Origin: an archaeon
GTDB taxonomy: Archaea > Nanobdellota > Nanobdellia > Pacearchaeales > GW2011-AR1
Reading direction: 5' to 3'
DNA: 32,000 nucleotides
Assembly (NCBI GenBank): GCA_043811855.1
Contig: JBDRMT010000004.1
Coordinates: forward strand, 973-32,972
Below the pieces are notes generated by a model. That model worked only from the letters and a program-made list of their open reading frames with translations. It searched no databases and was not told the DNA's origin. This document shows, piece by piece, positions 858-27,781 of this stretch. The translations under genes and the position numbers were made by a program. Numbering within the stretch: the stretch's first letter is position 1; each line of letters starts with the position of its first letter.

Positions 858-887
858 TTAGAAAGTAAGAGAATATATTTTAAAAGT

Positions 888-1988
888 CTATTGGTTGTAA
901 AGCTCTAATTCTCCATTAACAATCTTTACAGAATACATAACAGGATTAATTTCTCCATTAGATTGAATATCTACTTTTCCATTTAAGCTGTCAAATGTTT
1001 TGAGATTGATTATGTTTTGAGCAATTGCTTCTCCATTTAACTTTTGTCCATTAGTTGCTTTAGCAACTAATCTTATTATGTCATATCCAAAATCAGCTCC
1101 TAAAGAAGGGTCCTTGTTATAAGTTTCTTTATAATTATTTTTAAACTCAGAATCCTGCATTAAAAATAGAGCAGCAGATGTATAGACTCCATCTGCTGAA
1201 GCTTGTTTTCTTGTTGATTCAGCTGAAAGAACTGAAGAAGATTCATATAAATCAGCATCTATCTGCAGTTCATTAAATTCTTCTACAATGTTAATTCCTT
1301 CTATTGGTGTTGAGCTTACAAACATAATCATTTCTGGATTTTTAGATTTAATTTTAGATAGTTGAGTTTTAAATTCAGTAGTTCCAGGGTTAAAATTTTC
1401 TTCAGCTACAATATCTATTTGTTTTTCTTCAGCACGTTTTTTAATATGATCTGAAACAGAAACTCCATATTCATCATTAATATACAATAATCCCATTGTA
1501 TTGTAATCTCCTATATTTATATTATTAAAATGAGAGTCTGCATATGCTTTTTCATCTACATAAAATCTAAATGCATAAGGGCTTTCATCAGCAACTCCTT
1601 TTGCTGCAACAATGGTCATAATTAAAGGGATTTTATCATTATCAACTAATGATATAATAGGAATACTAACCCTACTAAAAGCAGAAACAACAACATCAAC
1701 ATCTTTTAATTTTAGACTTTGATATGCTGAAATAGCTTCTTTTGAATCTGCTTTACTATCTTCATAAATAAATTTTATATTAATTCCTTCTTGAGATAAT
1801 TCTTGTTGTGCAATTTCCATACCATTTTTAATTGATTCTCCCCACACAGATGCTCCTCCTGTCAAAGGGAGTATTGCTCCAATAGTTAGGGTTTCAGAAT
1901 TTGTTTTGGGCATAAGAGCTATTACTAAAACAATTATAACAATTAATAGAATAACTAGAAGAATTATAAGTTTGTTCTTGTTTTTCAT
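888..1988 (-). CDS. LivJ-type ABC substrate-binding protein, membrane-anchored (class A, MPK... linker)
   Basis: 366 aa. It has an N-terminal hydrophobic anchor followed by LTIGAILPLTGGASVWGE and INIKFIYEDSKADSKEA, typical of Leu/Ile/Val-binding-protein family receptors. ATG confirmed at 1988-1986. Confidence 0.85.
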   Translation of the reverse strand: MKNKNKLIILLVILLIVIIVLVIALMPKTNSETLTIGAILPLTGGASVWGESIKNGMEIAQQELSQEGINIKFIYEDSKADSKEAISAYQSLKLKDVDVVVSAFSRVSIPIISLVDNDKIPLIMTIVAAKGVADESPYAFRFYVDEKAYADSHFNNINIGDYNTMGLLYINDEYGVSVSDHIKKRAEEKQIDIVAEENFNPGTTEFKTQLSKIKSKNPEMIMFVSSTPIEGINIVEEFNELQIDADLYESSSVLSAESTRKQASADGVYTSAALFLMQDSEFKNNYKETYNKDPSLGADFGYDIIRLVAKATNGQKLNGEAIAQNIINLKTFDSLNGKVDIQSNGEINPVMYSVKIVNGELELYNQ

Positions 1989-2018
1989 GGATAATAGAGG
2001 AATGAGTGGTTTAAAAAA

Positions 2019-3092
2019 TTAATTGATTAAAACAAGTTGGCCCTCTTTGACCAGGTATATTCTCTCAACTCTGTCAAGACTTCCTGAAGGTCCAATGACT
2101 TCTACTAGTCCTTGCTGTAAGTTATTAGGATTAATTTTATATGCATTTTCAATTGTCTTAAGACCATCATATCCAAAAGATACAAGAGTAATATCAATTG
2201 GCTCTTCACCAAATTTTTCAAAATATTTTTGTTTTAAAACATTAACATTCTCAACATAAATGTTTGTGAAGATAATACCTTCTGCTGCATTTCCAGATGC
2301 ATCAATTACATCTTGTATAATTGAATCTCCAGCTAAGATCTGTGCATCAATTCCTAATTCTCTTTTTTGGGTTATAAAATCTGCAATGACTGGAGGGACC
2401 AAAGGAGCATAAATTGCATCAACATTTTTATTTTTAATTTTTAAAAGAGCTGTTCTATAATCTCTTTCATCAGGATTATAAGTTTCATGAATTACAATCT
2501 CTCCTCCTAAGGTAACAAATTTATTCATAAAAGCTTTTGAAATTATCTCAGACCAAACGTCTTTATGAGATATAACTGCAATTTTTCTTAATTTTAATTC
2601 ATTAAAGGCAAATTCTGCCATTTTTTCTCCAGATTTCTCTGTTGAAAACCCGGTGCTAAACAGATTATCAGATTCATAAATAAAATTTGTACTATCCCAT
2701 ACAACAAGCAAGGGAATTTTTTTATTATTGAAAATCGGAGCAATAGGTTTTGCTACCTCAATCATTGTAGTTAAACCAACATCAATATTATCAATGTTTG
2801 TTAACTTATTTGCAGAATTAATAGCTGCAATACTGTTAAAACTTTCTTCATCTTCATAAATAACTTTAATATCTAAATATGATTCATCTAAAGCTAGTTT
2901 TATTCCCCTACTAACTTCCTGACCAATATAACTATAATCTCCTGATAAAGGCAAGATTGCTCCAACAACTAAATCTTTATTATTTTTAATACTAAATCCT
3001 GTCATTATAAAAGTATTAACTAAAATTAACAACATTACTCCTAGTATTGCTATAATAACAATTATTTTTATTGTATTATTTTTGTTTTCCAT
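2019..3092 (-). CDS. LivJ-type ABC substrate-binding protein, membrane-anchored (class B, FSIKNNKD linker); module 1
   Basis: 357 aa. TM anchor, then TGFSIKNNKDLVVGAILPLSGDYSYIGQE. Divergent from the TrmB gene at 3172. Confidence 0.85.
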   Translation of the reverse strand: MENKNNTIKIIVIIAILGVMLLILVNTFIMTGFSIKNNKDLVVGAILPLSGDYSYIGQEVSRGIKLALDESYLDIKVIYEDEESFNSIAAINSANKLTNIDNIDVGLTTMIEVAKPIAPIFNNKKIPLLVVWDSTNFIYESDNLFSTGFSTEKSGEKMAEFAFNELKLRKIAVISHKDVWSEIISKAFMNKFVTLGGEIVIHETYNPDERDYRTALLKIKNKNVDAIYAPLVPPVIADFITQKRELGIDAQILAGDSIIQDVIDASGNAAEGIIFTNIYVENVNVLKQKYFEKFGEEPIDITLVSFGYDGLKTIENAYKINPNNLQQGLVEVIGPSGSLDRVERIYLVKEGQLVLIN

Positions 3093-3126
3093 AACAAAAA
3101 CTTAATAGAAAGATTTATATATTTAG

Positions 3127-3146
3127 TTAGTATGATATCATACTAA
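3127..3146. promoter_or_regulatory. 20-bp perfect palindrome TTAGTATGATATCATACTAA between back-to-back TATA-like boxes; candidate TrmB operator
   Basis: I read it directly and it is its own reverse complement. It lies between TATA-like gatttatatattt (3112-3124, about 26 nt from the minus-strand ATG at 3092) and ctaatataaatg (3143-3154, about 23 nt from the ATG at 3172). Confidence 0.5.
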
Positions 3147-3171
3147 TATAAATGATAATTTGATAAAAAAT

Positions 3172-3894
3172 ATGAAAAACATATTAAGACAAATTGGGCT
3201 AACAGATTATGAAGCAGAAGTTTACATAGTATTGCTTGCACACGGCCAATTGTCTGCTTATGAATTAGCAGAAAAAGCAGGATTATACAGACAGGTAACT
3301 TATGACACATTAAAAAGGCTTCAAGAAAAAGCATTTGTAAGCTCAGTAACTAAAGGAAAAACAAAGCTCTTTAGGGCTTTGGATCCTAAATTAATTCTTG
3401 AAATATTAAATGAAAAAATAGATAATTTTAAGCAAGTTCTTCCAGAATTATCAAACCTTCAAAAACAATCTTCTGATAAAATTATTGTTGAAACTTACAA
3501 AGGTAAAAATGTCATGAGACTTGCATTTAGAGATATAATAAACCAATTAAAAAACAAAGGGGGGGAGGTCTTATGCACTGCTGTAGATGAAAATGTTCCA
3601 TTTACAGATTATGAAATTATCTGTGGACAATATGAAAGAGATATGATAAGATATAAGATTAAAGAAAGAATTATAATCAAACAAGGAGCAGAAGGCGTAT
3701 TTAAGAAAGGAACCTCTAAATATAAAAATATATCTAAAGAATATTTTAATGAAAACCCAGTCCAGATATATGGAAATAATGTTCATACAATAATCTGGGG
3801 TAATCCAGATTATTTAATAATTATAAGAAGTAAAGAAGTTGCTGAAAGTTATAGAAAGCAATTTGAGTTTATGTGGAAGCATGCAAGGGCTTGA
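3172..3894 (+). CDS. TrmB-family transcriptional regulator (wHTH + C-terminal domain), module 1
   Basis: MKNILRQIGLTDYEAEVYIVLLAHGQLSAYELAEKAGLYRQVTYDTLKRLQEKAFV matches the TrmB N-terminal wHTH pattern. The ORF-track start at 3160 is TTG, so I prefer the ATG at 3172. Confidence 0.85.
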   Translation: MKNILRQIGLTDYEAEVYIVLLAHGQLSAYELAEKAGLYRQVTYDTLKRLQEKAFVSSVTKGKTKLFRALDPKLILEILNEKIDNFKQVLPELSNLQKQSSDKIIVETYKGKNVMRLAFRDIINQLKNKGGEVLCTAVDENVPFTDYEIICGQYERDMIRYKIKERIIIKQGAEGVFKKGTSKYKNISKEYFNENPVQIYGNNVHTIIWGNPDYLIIIRSKEVAESYRKQFEFMWKHARA

Positions 3895-4305
3895 TCACAT
3901 TACAACATTAATACTCTTTATATTTAAAAATTCTTTATCAAAAGTTATTAAATCTCTTATTTTATAAATATCCATATAAGCAATTATTATACAATCTGTA
4001 AAGCTAAATTTGGTTTGTTTTTGGTTTGAAAAAACTTCCCAAGCTTTATTAAAAGTATCTTCATTAATATGAGTAACTCCTATTGTTGATATGATATCAT
4101 TTCCTATTATTTTAACTTTATTAATATCTTTTAATAATCTTAAACAAACACCTATAACTTCATCAAAAATATGATCTAAAACAATAAAATTGTCTGAATA
4201 ATCTCTTATTTTTTCAGATAATTCTACTGCTTTTTTATGATGAACATCATCATCATTAAAATACGCTATTAAAAAATTTGCATCAAATAGTATCATTTTA
4301 TTCAT
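3895..4305 (-). CDS. vapC: PIN-domain toxin (VapC-like)
   Basis: ILFDANFLIAYFNDDD...VLDHIFDEV...FSFTDCIIIAYM...LITFDKEF shows the acidic PIN residues in the usual order. The ORF-track N-terminal extension (to 4422) overlaps the antitoxin gene. ATGs at 4305 or 4296 fit the 4298 stop of the upstream gene. Confidence 0.8.
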   Translation of the reverse strand: MNKMILFDANFLIAYFNDDDVHHKKAVELSEKIRDYSDNFIVLDHIFDEVIGVCLRLLKDINKVKIIGNDIISTIGVTHINEDTFNKAWEVFSNQKQTKFSFTDCIIIAYMDIYKIRDLITFDKEFLNIKSINVVM

Positions 4306-4546
4306 AAAGTATTTTATCAATTTCTTCACTAGCCCTTTCAGTTCCAGGACCCCAACTAAAGGGTTTAACTTGTAAAAATTTCTTTTTACTTTTATTCTTA
4401 ATTTTCTGTTTTTCTTTTTCAATATATAATTTCATTGCTAAAGTCAATGCATCACCTAGTTTTAGTCTTTGTTCAACTGATAAAGATCTAAATTTATTAT
4501 AAACTTCTTCATCAATTTCTCTAACTCCTATAAATGTTTTTCCCAT
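4298..4546 (-). CDS. Small antitoxin-like protein (VapB-type partner of the PIN toxin)
   Basis: 82 aa, immediately upstream of and overlapping or abutting the PIN gene. Its size, position and charged C-terminal half are typical of type II antitoxins. Confidence 0.6.
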   Translation of the reverse strand: MGKTFIGVREIDEEVYNKFRSLSVEQRLKLGDALTLAMKLYIEKEKQKIKNKSKKKFLQVKPFSWGPGTERASEEIDKILYE

Positions 4547-4564
4547 ATGTTAAACATGTTAAAC
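4547..4564. promoter_or_regulatory. Tandem ATGTTAAAC x2 containing the 12-bp palindrome TTAACATGTTAA; candidate VapB operator
   Basis: Read directly. It abuts the antitoxin ATG (4546-4544, minus strand). Confidence 0.4.
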
Positions 4565-4598
4565 AAGTATTTAAATGTTTTTGTTAGAAGTATCTTTT

Positions 4599-5723
4599 TT
4601 AATTAATTTCAACTACCTCTCCATCTTCATATATAAACATTGATTCTTTAATACTTCTTGCAACATGATCATCATCAATTGTAATTAATCCTGCAGCTCC
4701 TTGAAAATCTTTTGTATTTTCTAGGTTTGTTTTAATACATTTTATATCTTCTTGATAATTGCATTGGTTCATAGCATTTAGTAGAACAGATGCTGAATCA
4801 TAACCTGCTGTCATAAATAAAACATTATCAGGATCTTTGTTGTGTTCTTGTTTATAAGAATCTATAAGATTTAGGAATTTTGGATTATTTTCAGAACCTT
4901 GCCAAAATGTAAATATTAAACCATTGATATTTTCTTTATTTCCTGCATTTTTTTTAAAATCTTCACTTACAAAAGTATCTATTCCTATAATTTCTGAATT
5001 AATATTTAATTCTTTTGCTTGTTTTACTATTCTTCCTGTTTCTTCCCAACCAATCATTACTATATTATCTTGGGTATTCACTTTAGTTAAAATTGATCTA
5101 AAGTCTGTTGTTGAAAAAGAATAATCTTCTTCTATTACTTGTCCTTTAAATCTTTGTTTAAATGAATTTTTTGTTAAAGTTGAAAATGCATCATCTAGAT
5201 TAGTTATTAACCCTGCACTTTCTGCATTGTTGTTATTTAAATAATCTGCAATAGCATAACCAATGCTTTCATCATATATTCCTATTGAAAAGGTATTATC
5301 ATTTAAATTAGAAAACTCTTCACTTGAATCAAGACTGTTTATTAGCAAAACATTATCTTTTTCTGCTTTATCTGTTAAAGCTAAAAATCCATCATAAGTA
5401 TTTATGAATATTATTTTAACTCCTTGAACATATACAAAATTATTATATGCATCAATTGCTTGTCTTGCATCATATTGGTCATCTTGAACAAACAGCTTTA
5501 TTTTATTATCTTGGTTAATCTCGTCTATTGCAAGTTTAATGCCATTAAGATTTTCAGTTCCAACAACAGCTCCTTCTCCTGTTAAAGGTCCTATAAATCC
5601 TATTTTAATTGTATCTTTATTATCTTTAATAGCAAATTGTGTTATTGATATCTCAAATATAGTTAAGGCTATAATTACCATTATGACTATTATTCCAATG
5701 ATTTTTATTTTTCTTCTTTCCAT
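4599..5723 (-). CDS. LivJ-type ABC substrate-binding protein, membrane-anchored (class B); module 2
   Basis: 374 aa. TM anchor, then TQFAIKDNKDTIKIGFIGPLTGEGAVVGTE. Divergent from the TrmB gene at 5839. Confidence 0.85.
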   Translation of the reverse strand: MERRKIKIIGIIVIMVIIALTIFEISITQFAIKDNKDTIKIGFIGPLTGEGAVVGTENLNGIKLAIDEINQDNKIKLFVQDDQYDARQAIDAYNNFVYVQGVKIIFINTYDGFLALTDKAEKDNVLLINSLDSSEEFSNLNDNTFSIGIYDESIGYAIADYLNNNNAESAGLITNLDDAFSTLTKNSFKQRFKGQVIEEDYSFSTTDFRSILTKVNTQDNIVMIGWEETGRIVKQAKELNINSEIIGIDTFVSEDFKKNAGNKENINGLIFTFWQGSENNPKFLNLIDSYKQEHNKDPDNVLFMTAGYDSASVLLNAMNQCNYQEDIKCIKTNLENTKDFQGAAGLITIDDDHVARSIKESMFIYEDGEVVEIN

Positions 5724-5771
5724 TTTGTTTTATTTTATGTTTATTTTGTTACTACCATTCGGTTTAATTTT

Positions 5772-5805
5772 AGTATTTATACTTATGTCGTAAGTTTTAC
5801 TACGA
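5772..5805. promoter_or_regulatory. Inverted repeats AGTAT-TT-ATACT (5772-5783) and TCGTA-N8-TACGA (5788-5805) in the divergent module 2 promoter region
   Basis: Read directly. The AGTAT/ATACT half-sites are the same as in the 3127-3146 palindrome. TATA-like aaatatttaaatagg (5805-5818) lies about 28 nt before the ATG at 5839. Confidence 0.3.
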
Positions 5806-5838
5806 AATATTTAAATAGGTGAAAATCTATTATTTTCT

Positions 5839-6567
5839 ATGAAAGAAGAACTACATGACTTTGGTTTAACAGAAAATGAAATTAAGACATACTTAGTCCT
5901 ACTAAAGTTAGGAAATGCAAATCCTTCTGAAATAGCTGAAAAAACAGGATTTTCACGTCCTTATGTATATGATATTTTAGAGAGATTATTAGAAAAAAGT
6001 ATTGTTTCTTTTGTTTTAAAGAAAAATAAAAAGTATTATTCTGCTATTGAACCTAGTTTGTTAGAGGAATTAGCAAAACAAAGACTTGATAATATTAAAA
6101 AGATTGTTCCTGATTTAGAGAAGATTAAAAAATCTATTGATGAAGAAATTAAAGTTGAGTTACATAAGGGTGAGTGGGTTTTTAAGATGTTATTAAATGA
6201 TGTTTTATCTATCTTAAAAAAGAATGATGAAGTGTTAATTTATGGCATTGATGAATTATCTATTTTTAAATTAAACAAATTCATGCCTATGTATTTGGAT
6301 CAATATTTTCATAGAATTATAAAAATGAAGACAAAAGAAAGAGTGATTATTGCAGAGGGTGGAAAAAGGTTTCCAGAAGCAACTACTACTAAATATAAAA
6401 CTCTTCCAAAGGAAATTATAGGAAATACTTCTTTTTTTCTTTATGCAAATAAAGTTGCTATTTTTCTCTGGGGAATACCTAATTATCTTATTTTAATTGA
6501 AAACAAAAGAGTTGCAGATTCATATAGAAATCAGTTTGAAATGTTATGGAAAGCTGCTAAAGCCTGA
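5839..6567 (+). CDS. TrmB-family transcriptional regulator, module 2
   Basis: LHDFGLTENEIKTYLVLLKLGNANPSEIAEKTGFSRPYVYDILERLLEKSIV is the wHTH. The C-terminal NYLILIENKRVADSYRNQFEMLWKAA is shared with the other two paralogs. Confidence 0.85.
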   Translation: MKEELHDFGLTENEIKTYLVLLKLGNANPSEIAEKTGFSRPYVYDILERLLEKSIVSFVLKKNKKYYSAIEPSLLEELAKQRLDNIKKIVPDLEKIKKSIDEEIKVELHKGEWVFKMLLNDVLSILKKNDEVLIYGIDELSIFKLNKFMPMYLDQYFHRIIKMKTKERVIIAEGGKRFPEATTTKYKTLPKEIIGNTSFFLYANKVAIFLWGIPNYLILIENKRVADSYRNQFEMLWKAAKA

Positions 6568-7689
6568 TTAATTAACCTCTACAGCTTTTCCATCCTTTAC
6601 TTTCATCATTACAAAATCTTTTGTAAATCCACCTTTACCATCACTTATTAAATGGCCTGATACTCCGTTGTATTCCTTAATATTATTAAGATATTCTTGT
6701 AAAGCTGTTGGGTTTGTTGAACCTGTTTGTTCAATAGCTTCTGCAATCATCATAACTGCATCATATGCAGAATCAGCACCTATATCAATATCTTGATTAA
6801 AAGTTTGTTTATATCTTTGTTCAAAGTCTTTTGTTGGAGTTAAAGATGTTAAAAAGATCATATCATTGTATGCTCCATCTGATGCTTCTATAATAGCATT
6901 ATCTACTGTTACTGAATACAAAGGGAGATTAACTCCTATTTCCTTAATACGTTTTACAACTGAAACTCCTATAATATATTCTCCTGAAGTTACTACAACT
7001 GCATCAATATTTTTTGCATTTTTAATTTTTAGTGCATCTGTTGTTACTTCTGTTTCTCCTGGTAAAGGTTCAACTAAAACTTCAACTTTCCCACCTAACT
7101 CTTCAAATCTACTTTTAAATGCAATTGTTTGATCTTTAACCCAGGGTTGTTGAGCACCAATCATAGCTACTTTTCTATGACCTTCTTTATAGACTAAATC
7201 TGCAAGATTTTTAGATAGTATATAGTCATGAGGCCAGGTATTGAACAAAAATTCACTATTTTCATTAAAATCTTTTACTCCTAATGAAGGTGATATCATT
7301 AAAACTTTATTATCACGAGCTAAATCTTTTAAAGCTAGTCCTGCAGGTGTCCATGTGGTTCCAATTATAATATCAATATCTTGAACATCTACTAAATTTC
7401 TAAAAGCATTAATAGCTTTTGTAGGATCTCCTTGGGAATCTTGATGATTAACAATAAGTTTTTTACTATTAATTCCTCCACCATCATTAATATCCTTAAC
7501 AGCTAAGTCTATTCCATTTTTAGAAGCAATTCCCCAACTAGAACCTTCATTAGTTAATATTAATATGCTTCCTAGATTTATTGTATCTTTATTATTTTTA
7601 ATACTAAATTCTGTTATAAAAAATGTATTTATTGCAAGCAAAGCTACAACTAAGATTGTTACTATTGCTATTATTTTTTTGTTTCCCAT
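6568..7689 (-). CDS. LivJ-type ABC substrate-binding protein, membrane-anchored (class B, divergent ligand-site motif); module 3
   Basis: 373 aa. TM anchor, then TEFSIKNNKDTINLGSILILTNEGSSWG. Its stop abuts the module 2 TrmB stop with no gap (6567/6568). Confidence 0.85.
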   Translation of the reverse strand: MGNKKIIAIVTILVVALLAINTFFITEFSIKNNKDTINLGSILILTNEGSSWGIASKNGIDLAVKDINDGGGINSKKLIVNHQDSQGDPTKAINAFRNLVDVQDIDIIIGTTWTPAGLALKDLARDNKVLMISPSLGVKDFNENSEFLFNTWPHDYILSKNLADLVYKEGHRKVAMIGAQQPWVKDQTIAFKSRFEELGGKVEVLVEPLPGETEVTTDALKIKNAKNIDAVVVTSGEYIIGVSVVKRIKEIGVNLPLYSVTVDNAIIEASDGAYNDMIFLTSLTPTKDFEQRYKQTFNQDIDIGADSAYDAVMMIAEAIEQTGSTNPTALQEYLNNIKEYNGVSGHLISDGKGGFTKDFVMMKVKDGKAVEVN

Positions 7690-7754
7690 TTTATTACCTT
7701 CTGAGAGTCATATTTAATAACTCACTCTCCAATAATGGAGGAGAAAAAGAAAGG

Positions 7755-7770
7755 TTTATATATATAAAAA
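7755..7770 (+). promoter_or_regulatory. Archaeal-type TATA (tttatatatataaaaa) preceded by AAAGG, about 25 nt upstream of the ATG at 7785
   Basis: Read directly. The same AAAGG+TTTTTATAA arrangement occurs at 17774-17787, about 25 nt before the ATG at 17808. This suggests leaderless transcripts. Confidence 0.45.
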
Positions 7771-7784
7771 ATATTATAAATATA

Positions 7785-8513
7785 ATGGATACTCAAATAC
7801 TAGAAGACTTGGGATTTACAAATGCAGAGATTAAGATATATTTGGCCTTATTAGAATTAGGTAAAACTAGTGTAGGGCCAATAATTGAAAAATCTGGATT
7901 ACAAAGCTCTGTTGTGCATACAACAATTCATAAACTAGTGAATAAAGGTTTTGTTTCTTTTATTAAAGAAGGTCAGAGAAATCATTATAGTGCAGCAAAT
8001 CCAAAGCATATTTCTAATTATATTGATGATAAAAAGAAAGAATTTGAAGAATTATTGCCTTTTCTTTTATCTAAGCAAGATAAAGCAACAAAAAAATCAG
8101 AAGTAACAACATATTTGGGAATAAAGGGAGTTAGAGAATTATTATATGAATTATTAGAAGCAGGAGGGAAAGAGCATCATACATTAGGATCTTCGATTGA
8201 TTCGGTTATGATGGGAGATGCTTTTTGGTCAAATTATCATAAAAGAAGGATTGATAAAGGGATAAAGGCAAAATTACTGTTTAATGAATCACTTAAGACT
8301 TGGACTTTAAAAAATAAGTATCCTAATGCTGAATATAAATTTACAAAATCTGGATTTGAACCTTTAACTGAGACAATAATCAGAAACGATAAAGTGGGGA
8401 TAATTATTTGGGTTACTCCTCCCCTAGGAATTTTAATTCATAATAAGGTTGCTGCTGAAAGTTATGATAAGTTCTGGAAAATTATTTGGGATAGTATTAA
8501 GAAAGTTTATTGA
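7785..8513 (+). CDS. TrmB-family transcriptional regulator, module 3
   Basis: MDTQILEDLGFTNAEIKIYLALLELGKTSVGPIIEKSGLQSSVVHTTIHKLVNKGFV. The ORF-track N-terminal 54 residues (from 7623) overlap the SBP gene and look like antisense noise. Confidence 0.85.
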   Translation: MDTQILEDLGFTNAEIKIYLALLELGKTSVGPIIEKSGLQSSVVHTTIHKLVNKGFVSFIKEGQRNHYSAANPKHISNYIDDKKKEFEELLPFLLSKQDKATKKSEVTTYLGIKGVRELLYELLEAGGKEHHTLGSSIDSVMMGDAFWSNYHKRRIDKGIKAKLLFNESLKTWTLKNKYPNAEYKFTKSGFEPLTETIIRNDKVGIIIWVTPPLGILIHNKVAAESYDKFWKIIWDSIKKVY

Positions 8514-8524
8514 AAGTTAAATAA

Positions 8525-9259
8525 TCACTCACCTAAATAAGCTTCTAGAACAGCTTTATTGTTCTTGATTTCAGATGGAGATCCTTCTGCAATAACTTTT
8601 CCTTCATCCATAACAATGACATGATCTGCAATTCCTAAGGTGAAGTTCATGTCATGCTCTATTAGGAGGACTGTTTCTCCTTGTTTTTTAAGCTTAGTGA
8701 GTAGGTCTGAGATTTGTTTTCTTAATTTAGGATTTACACCTGCAACTGGTTCATCTAACATAAGTAGTTTATGAGGATTAATAATTGCCCTTGTTATTTC
8801 TACTAATCTTTTTTGACCAAAACTTAATTCTCCTGCTTGCTTGTTCATAAAGTCTGTTATTCCTACTAGTTCTGCAGTTTTTTTAACTTTGTTGTAATCT
8901 TCTTGAGAAAATTTATAATTTATTAGATTTTTCCAAAATTCTGTATCTTTATTGCTTAAGGCAAGAAGAAGATTTTCTTTAACACTTAGATTATCAAATA
9001 ATCTTGCTTGTTGAAATAACCTAGATATTCCTAGATTAGATATTTTATGAATCTTCATCTTAGTAATATCTTGTTTATTAAAATATATTTCACCTGAATC
9101 TGGTTTTAAAGTTCCAGTTGTAAGATTAAATATTGTTGTTTTTCCACTTCCATTTGGACCTATTAATGCTGTTATCTTATTATCTTTAATTTCAAAACTA
9201 GCATTATCTACTGCTTTTATTCCTCCAAAATGTTTTTTTAAGTTAGTTATTTTTAGCAT
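8525..9259 (-). CDS. livG: Branched-chain amino acid ABC transporter ATP-binding protein, LivG type
   Basis: MLKITNLKKHFGGIKAVDNASF..GPNGSGKTT (Walker A), LSFGQKRLVEITRA (signature), LLMLDEP (Walker B), LIEHDM, and the C-terminal EAYLGE typical of LivG. Start taken at the ATG at 9259, 24 codons inside the ORF-track call. Confidence 0.9.
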   Translation of the reverse strand: MLKITNLKKHFGGIKAVDNASFEIKDNKITALIGPNGSGKTTIFNLTTGTLKPDSGEIYFNKQDITKMKIHKISNLGISRLFQQARLFDNLSVKENLLLALSNKDTEFWKNLINYKFSQEDYNKVKKTAELVGITDFMNKQAGELSFGQKRLVEITRAIINPHKLLMLDEPVAGVNPKLRKQISDLLTKLKKQGETVLLIEHDMNFTLGIADHVIVMDEGKVIAEGSPSEIKNNKAVLEAYLGE

Positions 9260-9263
9260 TTTA

Positions 9264-9860
9264 TTATTTACTCTTAGGTATTTCTGAATCTTCAAATATT
9301 TTATTGTTAAATTTAACCCAACGAGAAACAACTTTTAATAAATAGTTTGAACGATAAAACTCACTTTCTCTTTTATTTTCAAAATAGGTATAAAGAACAA
9401 CCTCGATTTTCATTTTTTCTTTAATCATACTAATTATTGGTGCAAAATCTGAGTCTGAAGAAATTAATATAATTTTCTTAATTTTTGGAAATTCCTCTCT
9501 AAATAAACATAAATCAGCTACAATCCAGGAATCTACTCCTTTTTGATTAAAGATTAGGTCACCTTCTTTTGTTATAATTTTTTGACATCTGCCTTCTCTT
9601 ACTGTAATCCAATTCTTTTTATCCAACATTTTTTTAAAATTATCATATTTTTTCTTTCTATATTTTTCATCGTCTGTTGGAGTATTGCTTTGAAAAGGAG
9701 GAGCTACATAGACATACATATGTTTTAAATTAAGATTTTCATTTTTACATATATTTTTAAAAGTTTGTAAAAACTTCTTCTTTTTACCAGATTTTTTTTG
9801 AAAATATCTTTTAACTAATCTAAAAAATCCATCGTCAACAAATATAATTGTATCTTCCAT
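9264..9860 (-). CDS. NYN-domain (LabA/DUF88-like, PIN-fold) ribonuclease
   Basis: IIFVDDGFF..., NQKGVDSWIVADL and ILISSDSDFAPII match the three acidic NYN motifs. A strong SD (GGAGGTG) lies 8 nt upstream of the ATG. The stop is 4 nt from the livG ATG. Confidence 0.75.
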   Translation of the reverse strand: MEDTIIFVDDGFFRLVKRYFQKKSGKKKKFLQTFKNICKNENLNLKHMYVYVAPPFQSNTPTDDEKYRKKKYDNFKKMLDKKNWITVREGRCQKIITKEGDLIFNQKGVDSWIVADLCLFREEFPKIKKIILISSDSDFAPIISMIKEKMKIEVVLYTYFENKRESEFYRSNYLLKVVSRWVKFNNKIFEDSEIPKSK

Positions 9861-9997
9861 TAATAAACACCTCCAATAAAAGTTAATAGATTAAAAAACA
9901 TCTGGCGACCGCAAAGATCACCAGGGAATATACTCACAGTCCTAAGACTGTTAATAATATTAGTTCTTTCTTCTTTATAAACTTTATTATTGTCCAT
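9860..9997 (-). CDS. Candidate 45-codon ORF whose stop overlaps the NYN start (TAATG); may instead be non-coding leader RNA
   Basis: My translation is MDNNKVYKEERTNIINSLRTVSIFPGDLCGRQMFFNLLTFIGGVY*. I saw no SD. It contains the two hairpins listed below. It is below the ORF-track size cutoff. Confidence 0.3.
   Translation of the reverse strand: MDNNKVYKEERTNIINSLRTVSIFPGDLCGRQMFFNLLTFIGGVY
9893..9951 (-). terminator. Two GC-richer hairpins followed by a U6 tract on the minus-strand RNA; candidate terminator or attenuator ahead of NYN-livG
   Basis: On the minus strand, ACAGUC-UUAG-GACUGU (9951-9936) is a perfect 6-bp stem. CUGGUGA-N9-UCGCCAG (9924-9902) gives 7 bp including one G-U. UUUUUU follows (9898-9893), about 25 nt before the NYN SD. 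Confidence 0.35.
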
Positions 9998-10113
9998 TTT
10001 ATTTTTTGTAAATTTATTAGTATATGTTAAACTTAAGAGGGGAGAGTGGTCTTGATTGCTTAACTAAGGTATTCCTCCTTTTAGTTATATAAGTTATTAA
10101 TAGGTTTAGCATT

Positions 10114-10527
10114 TTATATCTCTTCATATCTTTTGAGTTTACTTATTATTTCAGGTATTTGTTTTAATGCTTCTTTAGCTGTTTCCAAGTTTAAATCTTC
10201 TCCATAATAATTAATACCATTTCTTATTTTTCTGTATCTATCAAATTTTATAGAAATAGACTCTTCTTTTAATATTTCTTTTAAAAAATAGGTAATTGAA
10301 ATGTGATCTAGAAATTTATATCCCTTTAAATATCCTATTGCTTCAATAAACTCCCTAAGACCTTCATACAGCTCTCTAAATATTGTTTTTGAAGTATTAT
10401 TATCTAGAGGTATTATTTTTGCTGTTTCAATTGCTTGTGAATGAAATTTAACCATACTTTTTGCTCTGATTGTATTGATCTCTGCTCTTTTTACCTTTCC
10501 TAATTTTAAACATGTATTAAAATCCAT
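10114..10527 (-). CDS. HEPN-domain protein (partner of the upstream nucleotidyltransferase)
   Basis: 137 aa, all-helical looking, with C-terminal FDRYRKIRNGINYYGEDLNLETAKEAL resembling the HEPN R..RN..Y block. Its start overlaps the stop of the MNT gene (TAATG at 10525-10529). Confidence 0.7.
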   Translation of the reverse strand: MDFNTCLKLGKVKRAEINTIRAKSMVKFHSQAIETAKIIPLDNNTSKTIFRELYEGLREFIEAIGYLKGYKFLDHISITYFLKEILKEESISIKFDRYRKIRNGINYYGEDLNLETAKEALKQIPEIISKLKRYEEI

Positions 10528-11057
10528 TATAAAACCTCTAATTCTCCTGATAAGACTATCCCATTTGCAATATTATTTATCAGAGAGGGATTAGTTTTTT
10601 TTAATTTTACTAAAGATGATTGTGAAAATACTTTTAAGTTTATCTCTTTATTTAGTGTTTTTTCATACTTAGAAACATTAAATTCCTTATTAATATCTGT
10701 TATTACGCAAATATCAATGTCACTTGTTACATCATCCTTTGCCTTTGAATAGCTTCCATATAAAACAATAACAGGATAATCATAATATTTTTCTAAATCT
10801 TGTATTATATTTGATTTTCTTATTTTTTCCATATTACAATATAGTTTTAAATTACTTACTTTTTCAGACTCTAATAACTTATAAGAAGAATAAATCTTAC
10901 CTTTTTCTAATTCTAATATTCCTTCTTTAACAAACTTATTAAGATACTGTCTTACAGTTGTATGATTAATATTAGTAAGCCTAGCTATTTCTCTTATATG
11001 GAACTCCCTATTTGGTTCTTCAAAAAAAGGTTTTAGTATGTTTAATCTTGTTTCCAT
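10527..11057 (-). CDS. wHTH-fused minimal nucleotidyltransferase (MNT) of a HEPN/MNT pair
   Basis: N-terminal IREIARLTNINHTTVRQYLNKFVKEGIL (wHTH), then LYGSYSKAKDDVTSDIDICV (the GS-X10-DxD polymerase-beta-type NTase motif). Confidence 0.8.
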   Translation of the reverse strand: METRLNILKPFFEEPNREFHIREIARLTNINHTTVRQYLNKFVKEGILELEKGKIYSSYKLLESEKVSNLKLYCNMEKIRKSNIIQDLEKYYDYPVIVLYGSYSKAKDDVTSDIDICVITDINKEFNVSKYEKTLNKEINLKVFSQSSLVKLKKTNPSLINNIANGIVLSGELEVL

Positions 11058-11058
11058 C

Positions 11059-11076
11059 TGTAAATATATATTTACA
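11059..11076. promoter_or_regulatory. 18-bp perfect palindrome TGTAAATATATATTTACA directly upstream of the MNT start; candidate promoter/operator
   Basis: Read directly. It is TATA-containing and lies in the 41-nt livM-MNT spacer. It is flanked by an 11-bp direct repeat tgtttccatct (11049-11059 and 11089-11099). Confidence 0.45.
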
Positions 11077-11098
11077 AGTGTTTATAAATGTTTCCATC

Positions 11099-11971
11099 TT
11101 ATTTTAATTGAACTTTTCCGTCAAATCCCTTTGGTTTATATATTAAAATAAGTAATAGGATTAAAGCATAAATTATTTGTCTAGCAGGTCCTACAACTGA
11201 GCTTGGGAATCCAACAAATCTTAGTATTTCTGGTAATATTATTAAGACTATTGTTGCAACTACTGTCCCTCTTAAACTTGCTAGTCCTCCAACAATAACA
11301 ATTAATAAAACAGGAATTAACTGCATTATTGTAAATGAGCTTGGATCTATAAAAGTTATATAATGTGCATATAAACTTCCTGCAATTCCTGCAAAAAAAG
11401 CAGAAACAATTAATGAAGTTGCTTTGACTTTAAATGTATTTTTTCCTAAAGTTTTAGAAGCAAGTTCATCATCTCTAACAGATTCTAATACTTTTCCAAA
11501 AGGAGATATTGTAATCTTTTTAATAACAAGATAAGAAATTATCACTATTATTATTGTGAATATAAGGAAGGCAAGATTGCTTGAAATACTAAATCCAAAA
11601 ATGCTTGGTTTTGGAATTCCAGGAAGTCCTAAGGGACCTCTTGTAAGTTCTGTCCAGTTTAGTAAAACAGCATAGACAACAAAGGAAAATCCCATAGTTG
11701 CAAGTGCAAGATAATCTCCTTTTAGCTTATGGGTGGGTATTGAAAGAAAAAAACCAAAAAGTCCTGCTATTAATCCTGCTAGTAAAAATGCTATCCAAAA
11801 TGGCCAACCTAACAAAGTTAGTAATGCAGATGTGTATGCTCCTATTCCAAAAAATGCAATATGCCCTAAATTAAGCAAGCCTGTAAATCCTATTGCTAAC
11901 TGAAGTGAAATTGCTAATATAATGTAGATTCCTATTAATATTAGTATGTGAATAAAATATGCTTCTATCAT
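11099..11971 (-). CDS. livM: Branched-chain amino acid ABC transporter permease, LivM type
   Basis: 290 aa and polytopic. GLLNLGHIAFFGIGAYTSALL is the LivM-type signature. Its ATG overlaps the upstream SBP stop (ATGA). Confidence 0.85.
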   Translation of the reverse strand: MIEAYFIHILILIGIYIILAISLQLAIGFTGLLNLGHIAFFGIGAYTSALLTLLGWPFWIAFLLAGLIAGLFGFFLSIPTHKLKGDYLALATMGFSFVVYAVLLNWTELTRGPLGLPGIPKPSIFGFSISSNLAFLIFTIIIVIISYLVIKKITISPFGKVLESVRDDELASKTLGKNTFKVKATSLIVSAFFAGIAGSLYAHYITFIDPSSFTIMQLIPVLLIVIVGGLASLRGTVVATIVLIILPEILRFVGFPSSVVGPARQIIYALILLLILIYKPKGFDGKVQLK

Positions 11972-13122
11972 TTTATATCTTTATATGGGATAATTTTCCC
12001 ATTTTTTACTATTTTAAGTTCAAATTCTCTTAATACATCTCCATTTTCATCAAAAGATATTTCACCAGATATTCCTTGATGATTTTTTATTTTAAATAGT
12101 TCATTTTTAATACATTCGGTTTTATCATCAGAACCACATTCTTCAATAGCTATTCCTATAACAATAACAGAATCATAGGCTCTTGCAGCATATATTTCTG
12201 GTTCAGTTTGATATTTCTTTTTATATTGTTCTATAAAATTTTTCATATTTTCATCGCCTGAATCAAGATTAAATTCAGGTGCTGCAATGAATAATCCTTC
12301 TGCAGCATCTCCTGCAATTGTGAATAATTCTTCTCCTCCAAAAATAGCTTGGGAACTAAATATCTGTAAATCTAAATCAAGTTCTTTGGAATTTTTAAGT
12401 AAATAACCTCCTTCTTTTGTATAAGGCGCTATATAAAGAGCATCAGGTTTGCTAGCTTTAACTTTATTAATATGAGTTCTAAAATCAACATCTCCTACAT
12501 TAAATGCTTCTGAAATTACAATCTCTCCACCAAGATTTTTAAACTCTTCTTCAAAAACTCTTTTTACTCCTTCTCCATAATCATTATTAATATATAATGA
12601 AGCAACTTTTCTTATATTAAAATCATTATACATGATTGTTGCAAGATTTTTCATTTCTAAATCAGCAGTTTCATAGGTTCTAAAAGTAAAATCTCCTTGA
12701 GTTGAATAATCTGGAGAAGCTGTTGCAACACCTATTTGAATAACCTTATCCTCATTAACTAAGGGTGTTAAAGCTATACCAACTCCTGAACCCATAGTTA
12801 TAATAATATTAACATTATTAAAATTCCTTAATTTGTTATATGAATTAATAGCTAATTTAGGATCTACTTGAGCATCTTCATATATTATCTCTATCTTTTT
12901 ACCATTAATTCCATTATTAGAATTTATTTCATCCTTTGCGAATTCAAGGCCATTCTGGATCCACTCTCCTTGATTAGCAATGCTTCCAGTTAATGCTAAA
13001 ATTGCTCCTATTTTTATAGTTTCATCTTGCTGTTTTGGTATGAAAATAAGTAAGTTTATAACTAAGATTATGATTATTAAAATAACCAACCAAGTTAATA
13101 GAGTTTTATTTTTAGATTTCAT
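11968..13122 (-). CDS. LivJ-type ABC substrate-binding protein, membrane-anchored (class A), embedded between livH and livM
   Basis: 384 aa. TM anchor, then ETIKIGAILALTGSIANQGEW and GINGKKIEIIYEDAQVDPKLA. There are ATGA overlaps at both ends (13119-13122 and 11968-11971). Confidence 0.85.
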   Translation of the reverse strand: MKSKNKTLLTWLVILIIIILVINLLIFIPKQQDETIKIGAILALTGSIANQGEWIQNGLEFAKDEINSNNGINGKKIEIIYEDAQVDPKLAINSYNKLRNFNNVNIIITMGSGVGIALTPLVNEDKVIQIGVATASPDYSTQGDFTFRTYETADLEMKNLATIMYNDFNIRKVASLYINNDYGEGVKRVFEEEFKNLGGEIVISEAFNVGDVDFRTHINKVKASKPDALYIAPYTKEGGYLLKNSKELDLDLQIFSSQAIFGGEELFTIAGDAAEGLFIAAPEFNLDSGDENMKNFIEQYKKKYQTEPEIYAARAYDSVIVIGIAIEECGSDDKTECIKNELFKIKNHQGISGEISFDENGDVLREFELKIVKNGKIIPYKDIK

Positions 13123-14006
13123 TTATCCTTACCTCCACCTCTTTTAATTCCTAAAATACCATTAGGTCTGAAAAGTAGGAATAAGAATAATAAGATAAAT
13201 GCAATTGCATCTTTATATCCTGAAGGGAGATACCAGATTCCAAAGTTTTCAGAAAATCCAAGTAAAAAAGCTCCTAAGATTGCTCCTGGAACACTTCCAA
13301 TTCCTCCAATAATTGCACCTGTAAATCCTTTTATTATAAGACTTGTTCCCATTGTTGGCTCTAGATTTTGTTCAAGAGCAATAAGAACTCCTGCAATTCC
13401 TGCAATTGCACTTCCTATAATAAAACTATAATTATATATTTTTTTAGAATTTATTCCTACAATTTCTGCAACATCTTTATTATCTGCAACAGCCCTCATA
13501 GCTTTTCCTATTTTTGTTTTTTTCATAAATAAGAAGAGTAAGAGTAACAAAACAAGAGAGGTTACTACAATAAAAATCTGTAGAGGGGTTATTATTGCTC
13601 CTAAAAATTCCATTCCTTTAGCTACTTTAATATAGCCTATTGTTTTAACATCTGCTCCAAAGAAAATTAAAATTACTGATTCTAAAAGTATTAATAATGC
13701 AAAGCTTGCTATAAGGAGTATTACACTACTTGCTTTTCTTTTTCTTAACTCTTTGTAAACAACTATGTTCATTAAATAGCCCATAACTCCTCCAAAGGCT
13801 ATTGCTAAAATTGCTGAAACAAAAAAATTAAATCCTAAAATTGAAAATAAAAAATAAAGAAAATAAGCTGAAAATGCAATTGTTGCTCCGTGTGCAAAAT
13901 GAATAAATTTATTAACAGAATAAATTAATGAAAAACCTGAAGATACTAATGCGTAGATAGATCCTGCAATTAATCCATTGATAAGTAACTGGGTTGCTAT
14001 TGACAT
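13119..14006 (-). CDS. livH: Branched-chain amino acid ABC transporter permease, LivH type
   Basis: 295 aa and polytopic. LINGLIAGSIYALVSSGFSLIYSVNKFIHFAHG matches the LivH N-terminal NFAHG-type motif. SD GAGGTG lies 5-6 nt upstream of the ATG. Confidence 0.85.
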   Translation of the reverse strand: MSIATQLLINGLIAGSIYALVSSGFSLIYSVNKFIHFAHGATIAFSAYFLYFLFSILGFNFFVSAILAIAFGGVMGYLMNIVVYKELRKRKASSVILLIASFALLILLESVILIFFGADVKTIGYIKVAKGMEFLGAIITPLQIFIVVTSLVLLLLLFLFMKKTKIGKAMRAVADNKDVAEIVGINSKKIYNYSFIIGSAIAGIAGVLIALEQNLEPTMGTSLIIKGFTGAIIGGIGSVPGAILGAFLLGFSENFGIWYLPSGYKDAIAFILLFLFLLFRPNGILGIKRGGGKDK

Positions 14007-20141: not shown

Positions 20142-20259
20142 ATAATAATATAGACATAATACTTTATAAAGCTTTTTAGATAATTTTATAAAGGCTTAGT
20201 TAGATTTATTATAAACAACAGAGGTTAAAACAATGAAAATTAAAAATTTTCAAGCACTA

Positions 20260-22883: not shown

Positions 22884-23005
22884 CCTTTTAATATAACCTT
22901 TTTTAGGTTAGTAAAAAAAATCTATCTGACTTATAAATATTTATGTAGATTTAATTATATATTCTCAAGTACCAAAAGCTTTATAAAGTATGAACTGTAA
23001 TTCAT

Positions 23006-27192: not shown

Positions 27193-27781
27193 ATCTTGAT
27201 GTTAAAAGTTTTGCTAGGTAATATGCAGAACCAAAAACAACTATTCCTGGTAAGAGTGCTATTCCAACAGTAGGTGCTAAAACACTTGCTCCAACAACAC
27301 CTATTGCTCCTGCTCCAACTGATTCTAAAATATCAACCATTTGAGGTACTGATTTTTCAACATTTTTTTGTAATGCATCAATCTGCATTATCATTTTTCC
27401 TTTTTGAAGAATTTTAATTTTTTTATCTTCTTCAGAGACTAAAACTACTAGATTATCATTTTTAGCAGCACTTATTGCAGCACTATGTCTTGTTCCAAAA
27501 TTCTTAATAGTCTTTGTAGTTTTTATCATAACTCCATATGCTTCTAAAAATCCATCTGGTTTTATTATTACTGCACCATCAATCATAGCAAGGGATTCTA
27601 ATAATTTTGAATTTTCATTTATCTTAAAAGAAGGAACTTTTTGTTCAATAAGAGGTTTATAACTAATTTCTCCAACAACAAACAATGCACCTTCTCCTCT
27701 TTTTGCAATTCTCAAACCTGTTTCTATAAGAATTTCTTGGAGTTCTTTTAAAGTTATTTTTTTGTTTTTTGTTTTTTTCAT
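27185..27781 (-). CDS. DisA_N (diadenylate cyclase, DAC) domain protein with a C-terminal hydrophobic anchor
   Basis: GALFVVGE, MIDGAVIIKPDG (DGA motif), FGTRHSAAISAA (RHR position reads RHS) and VLVSEED. The C-terminal GAGAIGVVGASVLAPTVGIALLPGIVVFGSAYYLA is TM-like. Its 3' end overlaps the gdh 3' end by 8 nt. Confidence 0.7.
   Translation of the reverse strand: MKKTKNKKITLKELQEILIETGLRIAKRGEGALFVVGEISYKPLIEQKVPSFKINENSKLLESLAMIDGAVIIKPDGFLEAYGVMIKTTKTIKNFGTRHSAAISAAKNDNLVVLVSEEDKKIKILQKGKMIMQIDALQKNVEKSVPQMVDILESVGAGAIGVVGASVLAPTVGIALLPGIVVFGSAYYLAKLLTSRFR

Follow-up and report, generated by a model that had tools for sequence, protein, structure and literature searches.

The window analysed here is a stretch of 32,000 nucleotides (nt) from an archaeon of the order Pacearchaeales (positions 973 to 32,972 of contig JBDRMT010000004.1, assembly GCA_043811855.1), with a G+C content of ca. 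28%. Its minus strand carries a liv transporter operon, in which livM and livG are separated by genes coding for an MNT nucleotidyltransferase with a winged helix-turn-helix (wHTH) domain, a HEPN-fold partner protein, a 45-codon open reading frame (ORF), and an NYN nuclease. The stretch from 9252 to 11098 probably consists of two unrelated, self-contained modules that were inserted one after the other at the livM-livG junction, as a case of parasitism or hitch-hiking rather than a device that links import to a toxin. Coordinates are window positions, and "L" numbers designate contigs or loci fetched for comparison. In the direction of transcription of the operon, with the sizes of proteins in amino acids (aa), the locus contains the following genes and gaps.

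13119-14006, minus strand: livH-type permease, first gene of the operon (BPD_transp_2 9e-40; UrtB and LivH matches in NCBIfam)
11968-13122, minus strand: substrate-binding protein (SBP), LivJ/K-like (Peripla_BP_6 3e-53)
11099-11971, minus strand: livM-type permease (BPD_transp_2 2e-52; LivM NF008450 7e-60)
11058-11098, minus strand: 41-nt gap between livM and MNT, with the putative promoter/operator block of the MNT-HEPN pair
10527-11057, minus strand: wHTH-MNT, 176 aa (Polbeta, NTP_transf_2, N-terminal wHTH)
10114-10527, minus strand: HEPN-fold partner, 137 aa, assigned from predicted structure only; 1-nt TAATG overlap with MNT
9998-10113, minus strand: 116-nt gap between HEPN and the 45-codon ORF, from the ORF map
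9860-9997, minus strand: 45-codon ORF, TAATG overlap with the NYN start
9264-9860, minus strand: gene of the LabA-type NYN nuclease, 198 aa (PF01936)
9266-9264, minus strand: NYN stop codon TAA, followed in the sequence by 4 nt (TAAA) and the livG ATG at 9259
8525-9259, minus strand: livG-type ATPase, intact (ABC_tran 4e-33, BCA_ABC_TP_C 1e-10, LivG NF008449 4e-72)
7785-8513, plus strand: convergent TrmB-family regulator, after livG (TrmB 5e-8)

This gene order from livH to livG and all of its gaps, which an earlier note on the same DNA had described, were reproduced from the ORF map and the sequence, and the next gene after livG is indeed a convergent trmB. The overlaps between livH and the SBP gene and between the SBP gene and livM are 4 nt each (ATGA). 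Proteins from metagenome-assembled genomes (MAGs) of Pace-, Woese-, and Nanoarchaeota share 81-84% identity with the livM protein, and the livG protein is 78% identical to those of L004 and L005. The order of the locus was reproduced in two Logan assemblies, identical pieces were present in three further groundwater/biofilm metagenomes (2016-2019), and a search of sequencing runs found the locus sequence confined to groundwater and biofilm metagenomes. The livM relatives and this distribution identify the organism as a DPANN archaeon, akin to Woese- or Pacearchaeota. Scans of the whole window for tRNAs and Rfam families gave no match. The MNT assignment made in the note holds, with matches to Polbeta (3e-10) and NTP_transf_2 (1e-5) and an N-terminal wHTH (HTH_5/HTH_24), and so does the NYN assignment, with a PF01936 match of 35.6 bits (cut-off 24.2; E-value 1.7e-8). 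The HEPN assignment stands for the fold, which is that of the predicted structure, while Pfam offers nothing even at E<=5. The proposal that the inserted DNA encodes two RNases is uncertain, because the HEPN-fold protein lacks the Rx4-6H motif. It was also correctly noted that livG has no intergenic room for a promoter, the NYN stop being 4 nt away; for its expression, livG must thus depend on read-through or on promoters located within the insert.

Comparison with related operons was based on 80 loci around livM relatives, annotated against the window proteins. The proposal that the cassette interrupts a livM-livG junction is borne out, since the two genes are contiguous in the closest relatives: in L005, L006, L009, L012, L014, L016, and L029 (livM 64-85% identical), the livM stop is followed, after 1-4 nt, by the livG ATG (...GAATAAAATG...). 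In a Woesearchaeota MAG (L004; livM 83% identical), the order is livM, MNT (59%), HEPN (66%), livG (78%), with the same 41-nt spacer between livM and MNT; the HEPN stop is 1 nt from the livG ATG, and neither the 45-codon ORF nor the NYN gene is present. Since L004 carries MNT-HEPN without NYN, at least two insertion events must have taken place, and the view of the inserted genes as one fused cassette has to be given up: the two modules were acquired separately, and both are found in other contexts. The comparison shows that the ancestral junction, as reconstructed from the relatives, consisted of the livM stop, 1-4 nt, and the livG ATG, and that the ca. 1.0-kb wHTH-MNT/HEPN-fold pair was inserted first, exactly between the livM stop and the livG start. 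The ca. 0.85-kb NYN unit was inserted later, into the first livG codons, with duplication of the livG start, a mode of insertion that is shown for the family and probable for the window. Among ca. 30 DPANN liv loci, the combination of MNT, HEPN, and NYN occurs only in this population. The fragmented, low-depth contigs of four metagenome runs contained no same-strain allele with an empty site; in contigs of these runs the arrangement persists, and relatives join livG directly to livM.

Traces of the second insertion can be recognized at both ends of the NYN unit in the window.

10105-10117, minus strand: left copy of the livG start, ATAAAATGCTAAA, at the old junction between HEPN stop and livG start that is intact in L004
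9998-10104, minus strand: non-coding filler, the first ca. 35 nt of which may be a decayed livG 5' end
9252-9264, minus strand: right copy of the livG start, ATAAAATGCTAAA, comprising the final base of the NYN stop codon, the 4-nt gap, and the first three livG codons

Directly behind the HEPN stop stands AATGCTAAA, which is the old HEPN-livG junction as it appears in L004, and the 13-nt exact direct repeat ATAAAATGCTAAA occurs exactly twice, 853 nt apart. The presence of the 13-mer at both junctions indicates that the NYN unit probably entered after the first livG codons and duplicated the start, and that the functional livG is the one further downstream. With the 13-mer included, a local alignment was reached by 5 of 500 shuffles, and the left copy probably extends in degenerate form to ca. 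10070. An origin of the entire 116-nt gap from a decayed 5' end of livG was rejected, as the similarity is not significant beyond ca. 48 nt (global comparison over 107 nt, p 0.14-0.29), and the gap has no homologue in any fetched locus.

The NYN unit was surveyed in 80 loci obtained from a metagenome scan, among which lineage redundancy is possible. In the first contexts examined, the NYN gene stood directly before a TsaD, PIG-L, DeoC, or Glucosamine_iso gene, and the DNA upstream of it was conserved. In 51 of 71 copies, the NYN stop and the start of a co-directional ORF are at most a few nt apart; in 17 of these the two genes overlap as ATGA. The downstream genes belong to 38 Pfam families (HsdM six times, amidase three times, TsaD twice), and other hosts include RtcB, GluRS, DeoC, RNase HII, fibrillarin, an Obg-like GTPase, and FtsX. 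The type I restriction-modification methylase HsdM is the commonest downstream host (6/44; L111, L124, L126, L141, L170, and L171). The unit is present before deoC in L085 and absent from the related L087. Target duplication was assessed by comparing the upstream flank of each copy with the sequence at or after its NYN stop, using mismatched pairs as controls. Flanking direct repeats scored above the 99th control percentile in 12 of 59 copies, and above the largest control in 10. With lengths of 32-109 nt and identities of 85-97%, these repeats stop 0-25 nt short of the TATA box on the left and start at -45 to +67 nt of the NYN stop on the right, and the clear duplications contain the host ribosome-binding site, ATG, and 6-25 codons. 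Two NYN units stand in tandem in a secreted-protein gene of L169 (3998-5464), where the host 5' end is present three times, and in L101 (692 region) and L105 (1323 region) insertions are nested after the FIDDGF/FIDEGF codons of another NYN gene. The nested and tandem insertions suggest that the same kind of site is re-used. A search for tandem repeats near the unit (TRF) returned weak AT-rich rows only.

Upstream of the NYN gene, the unit contains a conserved leader, which covers the 45-codon ORF. Its elements in the window are as follows.

9974-9981, minus strand: TATA-box-like TTTATAAA of the NYN unit, upstream of nearly all copies
9902-9951, minus strand: conserved structured RNA, recognized by covariation
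9946-9951 paired with 9936-9941, minus strand: hairpin P1, UUAG loop
Between P1 and P2, minus strand: linker GAGUAUAUUCC
9916-9924 paired with 9902-9910, minus strand: hairpin P2
9893-9898, minus strand: U-run directly after P2, seen in the sequence
9870-9874, minus strand: GGAGG ribosome-binding site, after a variable spacer; seen in the sequence, same layout in all copies

A common leader layout was found in ca. 75 of the 80 NYN loci. It begins with (A/G)NTTTATAAA and a variable 22 nt to P1 (exactly 22 in 54 of 55 copies), continues with P1, which has a UUCG-type loop, the linker GAGUAUGAUCC, and P2, which family-wide usually has a GNRA loop and carries invariant U.G, G.U, and U.G pairs, and ends with AUGYUUUUAUUUUU, ca. 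10-20 variable nt, GGAGG, and the NYN ATG. Variants of the TATA box are A/T swaps (TTTTAAA, TATATAAA) and never synonymous codon changes. The TTTATAAA octamer is not over-represented in the window (13 found versus 9.3 expected). Six of the 13 octamers are intergenic (15131, 20163, 20185, 22980, 27841, and 31564); the one at 20163-20170 lies 21 nt before the LemA ATG (20141) and the one at 22980-22987 lies 18 nt before an ATG at 23006, positions that fit TTTATAAA being the TATA box of the organism and many of its mRNAs being leaderless.

In an alignment of 62 distinct copies of the leader, 100% of 930 pair-cells are standard pairs, and compensatory double changes occur in 7 of 15 pairs, which was matched by 0 of 500 shuffles; when the pairing was slid as a control, 20-44% of cells paired. 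RNAalifold independently predicts the same two helices. The invariant G.U pairs, of which there are four in the structure, show that the conserved molecule is a sense-strand RNA. Box C/D or K-turn elements, hammerhead, twister, or pistol ribozymes, integron attC-like DNA hairpins, and protein-only RNase P (HARP) were considered and dropped, because their cores are absent from the conserved sequence and the four invariant G.U pairs point to RNA. A covariance model scored 84 bits at the window leader, its single match there, and in 630 kb of fetched loci it matched only beside NYN genes; it detected no NYN leader in L003-L044 or L058. Rfam searches at the gathering score (whole window) and at E<=10 (9780-10140) gave chance-level matches only (atoC 14.7 bits, rli43), and Pfam, NCBIfam, and PADLOC contain no family that matches the 45-codon ORF.

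The leader is nevertheless kept translatable. Between the TATA box and the NYN ATG, one frame has no stop in 52 of 55 copies, whereas the other frames are open in 0 of 55, and stops within the 22-nt spacer are seen in 1 of 55 copies in the leader frame versus 16 of 55 in the next frame. The conserved residues of this frame are dictated by the helices, and the compensatory changes are non-synonymous. The frame is continuous with the truncated host N-terminus in L136, L162, and L173, with an upstream gene in L111 and L123, and with another NYN gene in L101 and L105. A view of the 45-codon ORF as purely non-coding was revised in the light of the open frame. We conclude that 9860-9997 combines a predicted promoter with a structured RNA and a leader frame that is kept open, and is not an independent protein gene. 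The literature on NYN/DUF88 proteins, DPANN archaea, and structured RNAs yielded no description of such an NYN-RNA element, and the unit is apparently undescribed.

The NYN protein has 413 homologues of 190-200 aa with 55-83% identity. The AlphaFold2 model (pLDDT 92) gave as top Foldseek matches a LabA-like structure (2qip, 1e-8) and the NYN domain of MARF1. Acidic residues D110, D116, D136, and D138 are invariant, and D9 is nearly so; PADLOC and NCBIfam scans of the protein gave no match. By profile, fold, and conserved acidic residues, the protein is a member of the LabA-like NYN family (PF01936/COG1432; 2qip) and resembles the MARF1 NYN RNase, but for known members neither a dedicated leader RNA nor insertion into the 5' ends of genes has been described. 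A census of the PIN superfamily lists this NYN group as "function unknown" (PMC5499597). A second NYN subfamily (L085, 2187-2899, minus strand; L169, 4877 region) is 45-47% identical to the first and 58% identical internally; its leader lacks P1 and retains a P2-like hairpin, CCGGUAAUC-UGAAA-GGGUUGCCGG, and both examples have clear flanking duplications.

The module that was inserted first, wHTH-MNT with its HEPN-fold partner, is preceded by a conserved block with three elements.

11090-11097, minus strand: box ATGGAAAC, conserved block before MNT
11081-11088, minus strand: TATA box TTTATAAA, conserved block before MNT
11059-11076, minus strand: palindrome TGTAAATATATATTTACA, with co-varying arms

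This block of ca. 40 nt precedes MNT in the window, L004, L030, L092, L093, and L094, and a diverged form of it is present in L013. The arms of the palindrome co-vary: they read TGTAAAT...ATTTACA in the window (11076-11059), TGGAA...TTCCA in L030 and L094, and TGTTAA...TTAACA in L013. We infer that 11058-11098 provides the module with a promoter of its own and with an operator that its wHTH would bind. The MNT start ATGGAAAC (ATG) lies 23 nt after the TATA box, a distance that predicts a leaderless MNT mRNA; the MNT-HEPN pair is probably an autoregulated unit, presumably expressed from such an mRNA. Two copies of the 10-mer GATGGAAACA are present, one immediately behind the livM stop and one where MNT begins (11058-11098 and 11049-11057). 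The two copies flank a 31-nt TATA/palindrome block and could be operator half-sites; alternatively, they could go back to an old duplication of the gene start, comparable to those that flank NYN units.

The GS-x(9-13)-DxD motif of MNT proteins is present in wHTH-MNT as GSYSKAKDDVTSDID (GSYS...SDID). The protein matches PADLOC model PDC-M05A over its full length (1.2e-18) and the MntA model NF047752 below the cut-off (4e-8), and its partner matches PDC-M05B weakly (3e-3 to 9e-3). A sequence-profile search of the PDB with the HEPN-like family of the partner returned no HEPN entry. The partner has 682 homologues of ca. 137 aa, ca. 60-76% identical and all unannotated. Its AlphaFold2 model (pLDDT 95) has AF_0298 HEPN as the top Foldseek match (TM 0.74/0.80), followed by the sacsin HEPN domain and by HEPN/MNT and HepT toxins (probability 0.9-1.0), and the fold of the modelled 137-aa protein is that of HEPN. 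In 40 sequences examined, the motif R102-N-G-I-N-Y107-Y108-G is invariant, as is H75, and the Rx4-6H RNase motif is absent. The presence of Tyr at the His position means that the label of RNase toxin is not justified. All six MNT-HEPN look-ups chosen without regard to liv showed other contexts: AsnRS/Hjc (twice), RsmB/PUA, PheRS, sugar epimerase/5-FTHF ligase, and aCPSF1.

Among known systems, the pair is closest in organization to the type VII toxin-antitoxin HepT/MntA (Shewanella SO_3165/3166; Aphanizomenon, PDB 7ae2 and 6m6u). As in that system, the genes overlap with MNT first, the MNT protein has GS...DxD, and the predicted HEPN fold superposes on the toxins; invariant tyrosines, Y107 and Y108, stand near the conserved Arg and may correspond to the RX4HXY tyrosine at which HepT/MntA is AMPylated. 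In contrast to HepT/MntA, the MNT protein here has an N-terminal wHTH and a matching promoter palindrome, R-x4-Y-Y replaces R-x4-6-H, which makes RNase activity doubtful, and the partner has no Pfam HEPN match and is unusually conserved (60-76% in 682 proteins). The pair is thus related to type VII HepT/MntA but lacks the catalytic motif. The PADLOC candidate defence class PDC-M05 shares the two-gene organization and the full-length match of component A, and differs in that its component B is matched only weakly by the partner. We know of no experimental validation of PDC-M05, and this class is not discussed in the embedded-defence preprint.

The earlier note had taken livF to be missing. Pfam scans of all ORFs of at least 90 aa revealed no second ATPase inside the window; a LivF-type ATPase is, however, encoded ca. 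8.8 kb downstream of livG on contig L089, which is 99.875% identical to window positions 1-6401, extends 972 nt past window position 1, and comes from one of the two samples that yielded contigs L001 and L002 of this locus. The ATPase is complete (234 aa; L089, 6665-7369), its best NCBIfam model is LivF (NF008626, 5e-69, full length), and its gene starts 2 nt after the stop of the sixth binding-protein gene, outside the window. The part of that gene inside the window is the following.

1-857, minus strand: sixth binding-protein gene, cut by the window edge (translation; L089 gene table)

Three TrmB regulators, six binding-protein genes (the sixth being the one cut at position 1), and a VapBC-like pair lie between livG and livF, and the TrmB gene at 7785-8513 belongs to the first of three TrmB/SBP modules that separate them. 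A similarly displaced livF, after livG and TrmB/SBP modules, is found in related MAGs (L005, L006, L008, L016, and L023), while the canonical order livH-livM-livG-livF is common in the 80 loci around livM relatives. With livF downstream, the transporter remains complete. All parts of a LIV-I/HAAT system (LivJ/K-HMGF) are present, i.e., two permeases, LivG with a BCA_ABC_TP_C tail, LivF (on L089), and binding protein; the difference from that system is that the operon is split by MNT-HEPN and NYN and by the TrmB/SBP/VapBC array before livF. The VapBC-like pair (3895-4546, minus strand; an 82-aa protein and a PIN-domain protein, PF01850 6e-13) lies within this array and is a third toxin-antitoxin-like insertion of the transporter region. 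In this clade the liv locus is "shattered", with repeated modules, each of a divergent TrmB regulator and a binding-protein gene, among or behind the liv genes (window 1-8513; L008, L013, L016, L019, L020, and L024). Six binding proteins and three TrmB regulators are encoded in the window, and each binding protein may own a regulator. Liv genes 68-77% identical to those of the window are found on contigs labelled as belonging to the candidate phyla radiation (Nealsonbacteria, Parcubacteria, Saccharibacteria, and Magasanikbacteria) or to Methanosarcinales (L006, L007, L011, L013, L017, L018, and L021-L023, of which L007, L013, and L023 also have TrmB), which suggests mis-binning or recent transfer.

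A mechanism can be proposed for the arrangement that results from the two insertions. Insertion of the NYN unit would leave a dead copy of the livG start behind the HEPN stop and an intact livG 4 nt after the NYN stop. Transcripts initiated at the liv and MNT promoters would then extend through the insert into livG, as would those from the promoter of the NYN unit, which may start at P1. The P2 hairpin and the U-run probably terminate part of the transcripts, as an attenuator does, and ribosomes on the open leader frame would melt P1 and P2 and so favour read-through. Translation would couple the leader frame to NYN (TAATG) and NYN to livG (stop-start across the 4-nt gap). The NYN RNase is likely to bind or cleave the invariant, G.U-rich P2, a site through which the nuclease could autoregulate its own mRNA, and the modules would at most impose polarity on livG. 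Known leader-peptide attenuators likewise have a short open frame running through a hairpin and a U-run before the regulated gene; the leader described here differs from them in being archaeal, in having no enrichment of a particular codon, and in that its function is putative. RNases that regulate their own mRNA via stem-loops are known (Regnase-1, rnc, and rne), and the encoding of a stem-loop-recognizing RNase on the same mRNA is the feature shared with them.

Several observations weigh against two successive insertions as the explanation of 9252-11098, or against parts of it. The duplication in the window is short (13 nt exact), its ca. 48-nt degenerate extension (...AATAACT...GGAGGAATA) has a score of 32, which is only the 99th null percentile, and the remaining ca. 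70 nt of the 116-nt gap match no fetched locus. The NYN unit contains neither transposase nor integrase, its only ORFs being the leader frame and NYN, and it is surrounded by no meaningful terminal inverted repeats; the NYN nuclease may not be the agent of insertion. Copies within one contig are only 45-47% identical and fall into two subfamilies, with no sign of recent bursts, and conservation of the NYN and HEPN proteins equals that of livM (55-83%), which fits useful host genes as well as selfish ones. Finally, the sequence comes from DNA metagenomes, and promoters, leaderless start, attenuation, and coupling are read from it. We tentatively suggest, as a possibility short of a probable one, that the NYN unit is a new class of archaeal mobile element without a transposase. 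Such an element would enter genes that are expressed, and often essential, within their first codons, and would restore the host gene through a long duplication of its translation start. It would borrow host transcription and translation via the open leader frame, which continues from the truncated host N-terminus and is coupled to NYN, as NYN is in turn to the host gene, and NYN and/or the RNA would take part in target choice or insertion. Such an element would differ from insertion sequences and transposons by the lack of a transposase and of defined termini, with a variable left end (0-25 nt) and variable duplications (32-109 nt). With free-standing homing endonuclease genes (phage T4 seg/mob) it would share a small selfish nuclease gene that is wedged into conserved genes, co-oriented and co-expressed with them, and present or absent at orthologous sites (window versus L004, L085 versus L087). 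It would differ from them in the nuclease, which is NYN and not LAGLIDADG, GIY-YIG, HNH, His-Cys, PD-(D/E)xK, or EDxHD, in the long variable duplications, which homing does not make, and in the many unrelated hosts. It is rather unlikely, in our opinion, that NYN and its leader are an ordinary, vertically inherited RNA-processing gene in genomes with scrambled DPANN gene order, the duplications resulting from illegitimate recombination or Campbell-type integration by the host. The livM-like conservation of NYN across lineages, the old, divergent subfamilies on one contig, the missing transposase and terminal repeats, and the variable left boundary and duplication length would all agree with such a gene, as would the TrmB/SBP modules that break the clade's liv operons and the absence of NYN relatives from IMG/VR viral contigs. 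Random rearrangement is, however, not expected to produce the regularity observed: the unit is nearly always co-directional and a few nt from the start of the next gene, every clear duplication spans a start codon, units are nested in the 5' ends of other NYN genes or doubled in tandem, and related genomes have filled and empty versions of the same site.

Two further explanations were considered. The NYN unit could be an RNA-protein addiction module similar to type III toxin-antitoxin systems (ToxIN, CptIN), in which a short RNA ending at the U-run neutralizes or titrates NYN, read-through yields the toxin, and the module is stabilized by its position before essential genes. Type III systems do share the order of promoter, structured RNA, hairpin with U-run, ribosome-binding site, and endoribonuclease gene, known RNases such as MARF1 are among the matches of the NYN fold, the invariant G.U pairs of P2 suggest a site of protein recognition, and hosts are often essential (TsaD, GluRS, GatA, RtcB, and fibrillarin). 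In type III systems, however, the RNA is a tandem array, whereas here it is a single copy (one covariance-model match, no tandem repeat); the nuclease is of the NYN and not the ToxN/AbiQ-like fold, with no PADLOC match; the RNA lies within a reading frame that is kept open, which implies translation through it rather than a free antitoxin RNA; and NYN toxicity is putative. We therefore consider an addiction module unlikely. The coupling of import capacity to toxin or defence state, which the earlier note had envisaged, would mean that MNT, HEPN, and NYN were recruited so that LivG expression depends on, or reports, that state. It would be favoured by the position of livG, 4 nt behind NYN and without intergenic promoter space, and by the presence of MNT-HEPN in or beside liv operons of three other DPANN MAGs, each time at a different position (between livM and livG in L004, between the SBP gene and livM in L013, and upstream of livH in L030). 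Within +/-8 kb of livM three pairs were found, each of them directly adjacent to liv genes; they count against simple hitch-hiking and could mean a non-random link with liv. On the other side, the combination with NYN is unique to this population, both modules occur mostly in unrelated contexts, the operon of the closest relatives has no insert at all, the modules carry their own predicted promoters, and the premise of a missing livF was wrong. The comparative data give no indication that a link of import capacity with toxin or defence state has been selected for, and we regard such coupling as highly improbable. Parasitic or hitch-hiking insertion of two unrelated modules remains the explanation we favour.

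Elsewhere in the window, a 772-aa PurD (29083-31401, minus strand; GARS_A at 98-248, GARS_C at 696-755) is interrupted by ca. 340 aa with LAGLIDADG_3 and weak intein-splicing matches, and the insert is thus probably an intein with a homing endonuclease. A protein with a DisA_N/DAC diadenylate-cyclase domain adjoins a MATCAP-family (tyrosine carboxypeptidase-like) protein at 27185-27781 and 27927-29033 (minus strand).

For the transporter, these results leave an ordinary story, in which selfish modules occupy a permissive junction and livF is present. They remove an attractive account that lacks support, as livF was not lost and no evidence was found for a connection of nutrient import with a toxin. 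The leader of the NYN unit is a new structured RNA motif, with perfect pairing and covariation, absent from Rfam and strictly tied to one DPANN NYN family. The unit also represents a new style of gene insertion, in which a small nuclease unit is placed before dozens of unrelated housekeeping genes with long duplications of the start region; to our knowledge, such a style has been described neither for transposons nor for homing endonuclease genes or toxin-antitoxin classes. The widespread pairing of MNT with a HEPN-fold protein that has no canonical RNase motif calls into question whether HEPN can be equated automatically with an RNase toxin. The genomes of DPANN archaea are tiny and densely packed with genes, and the way in which modules are inserted into them without being lethal bears on the evolution of these genomes and on the expression of their operons.

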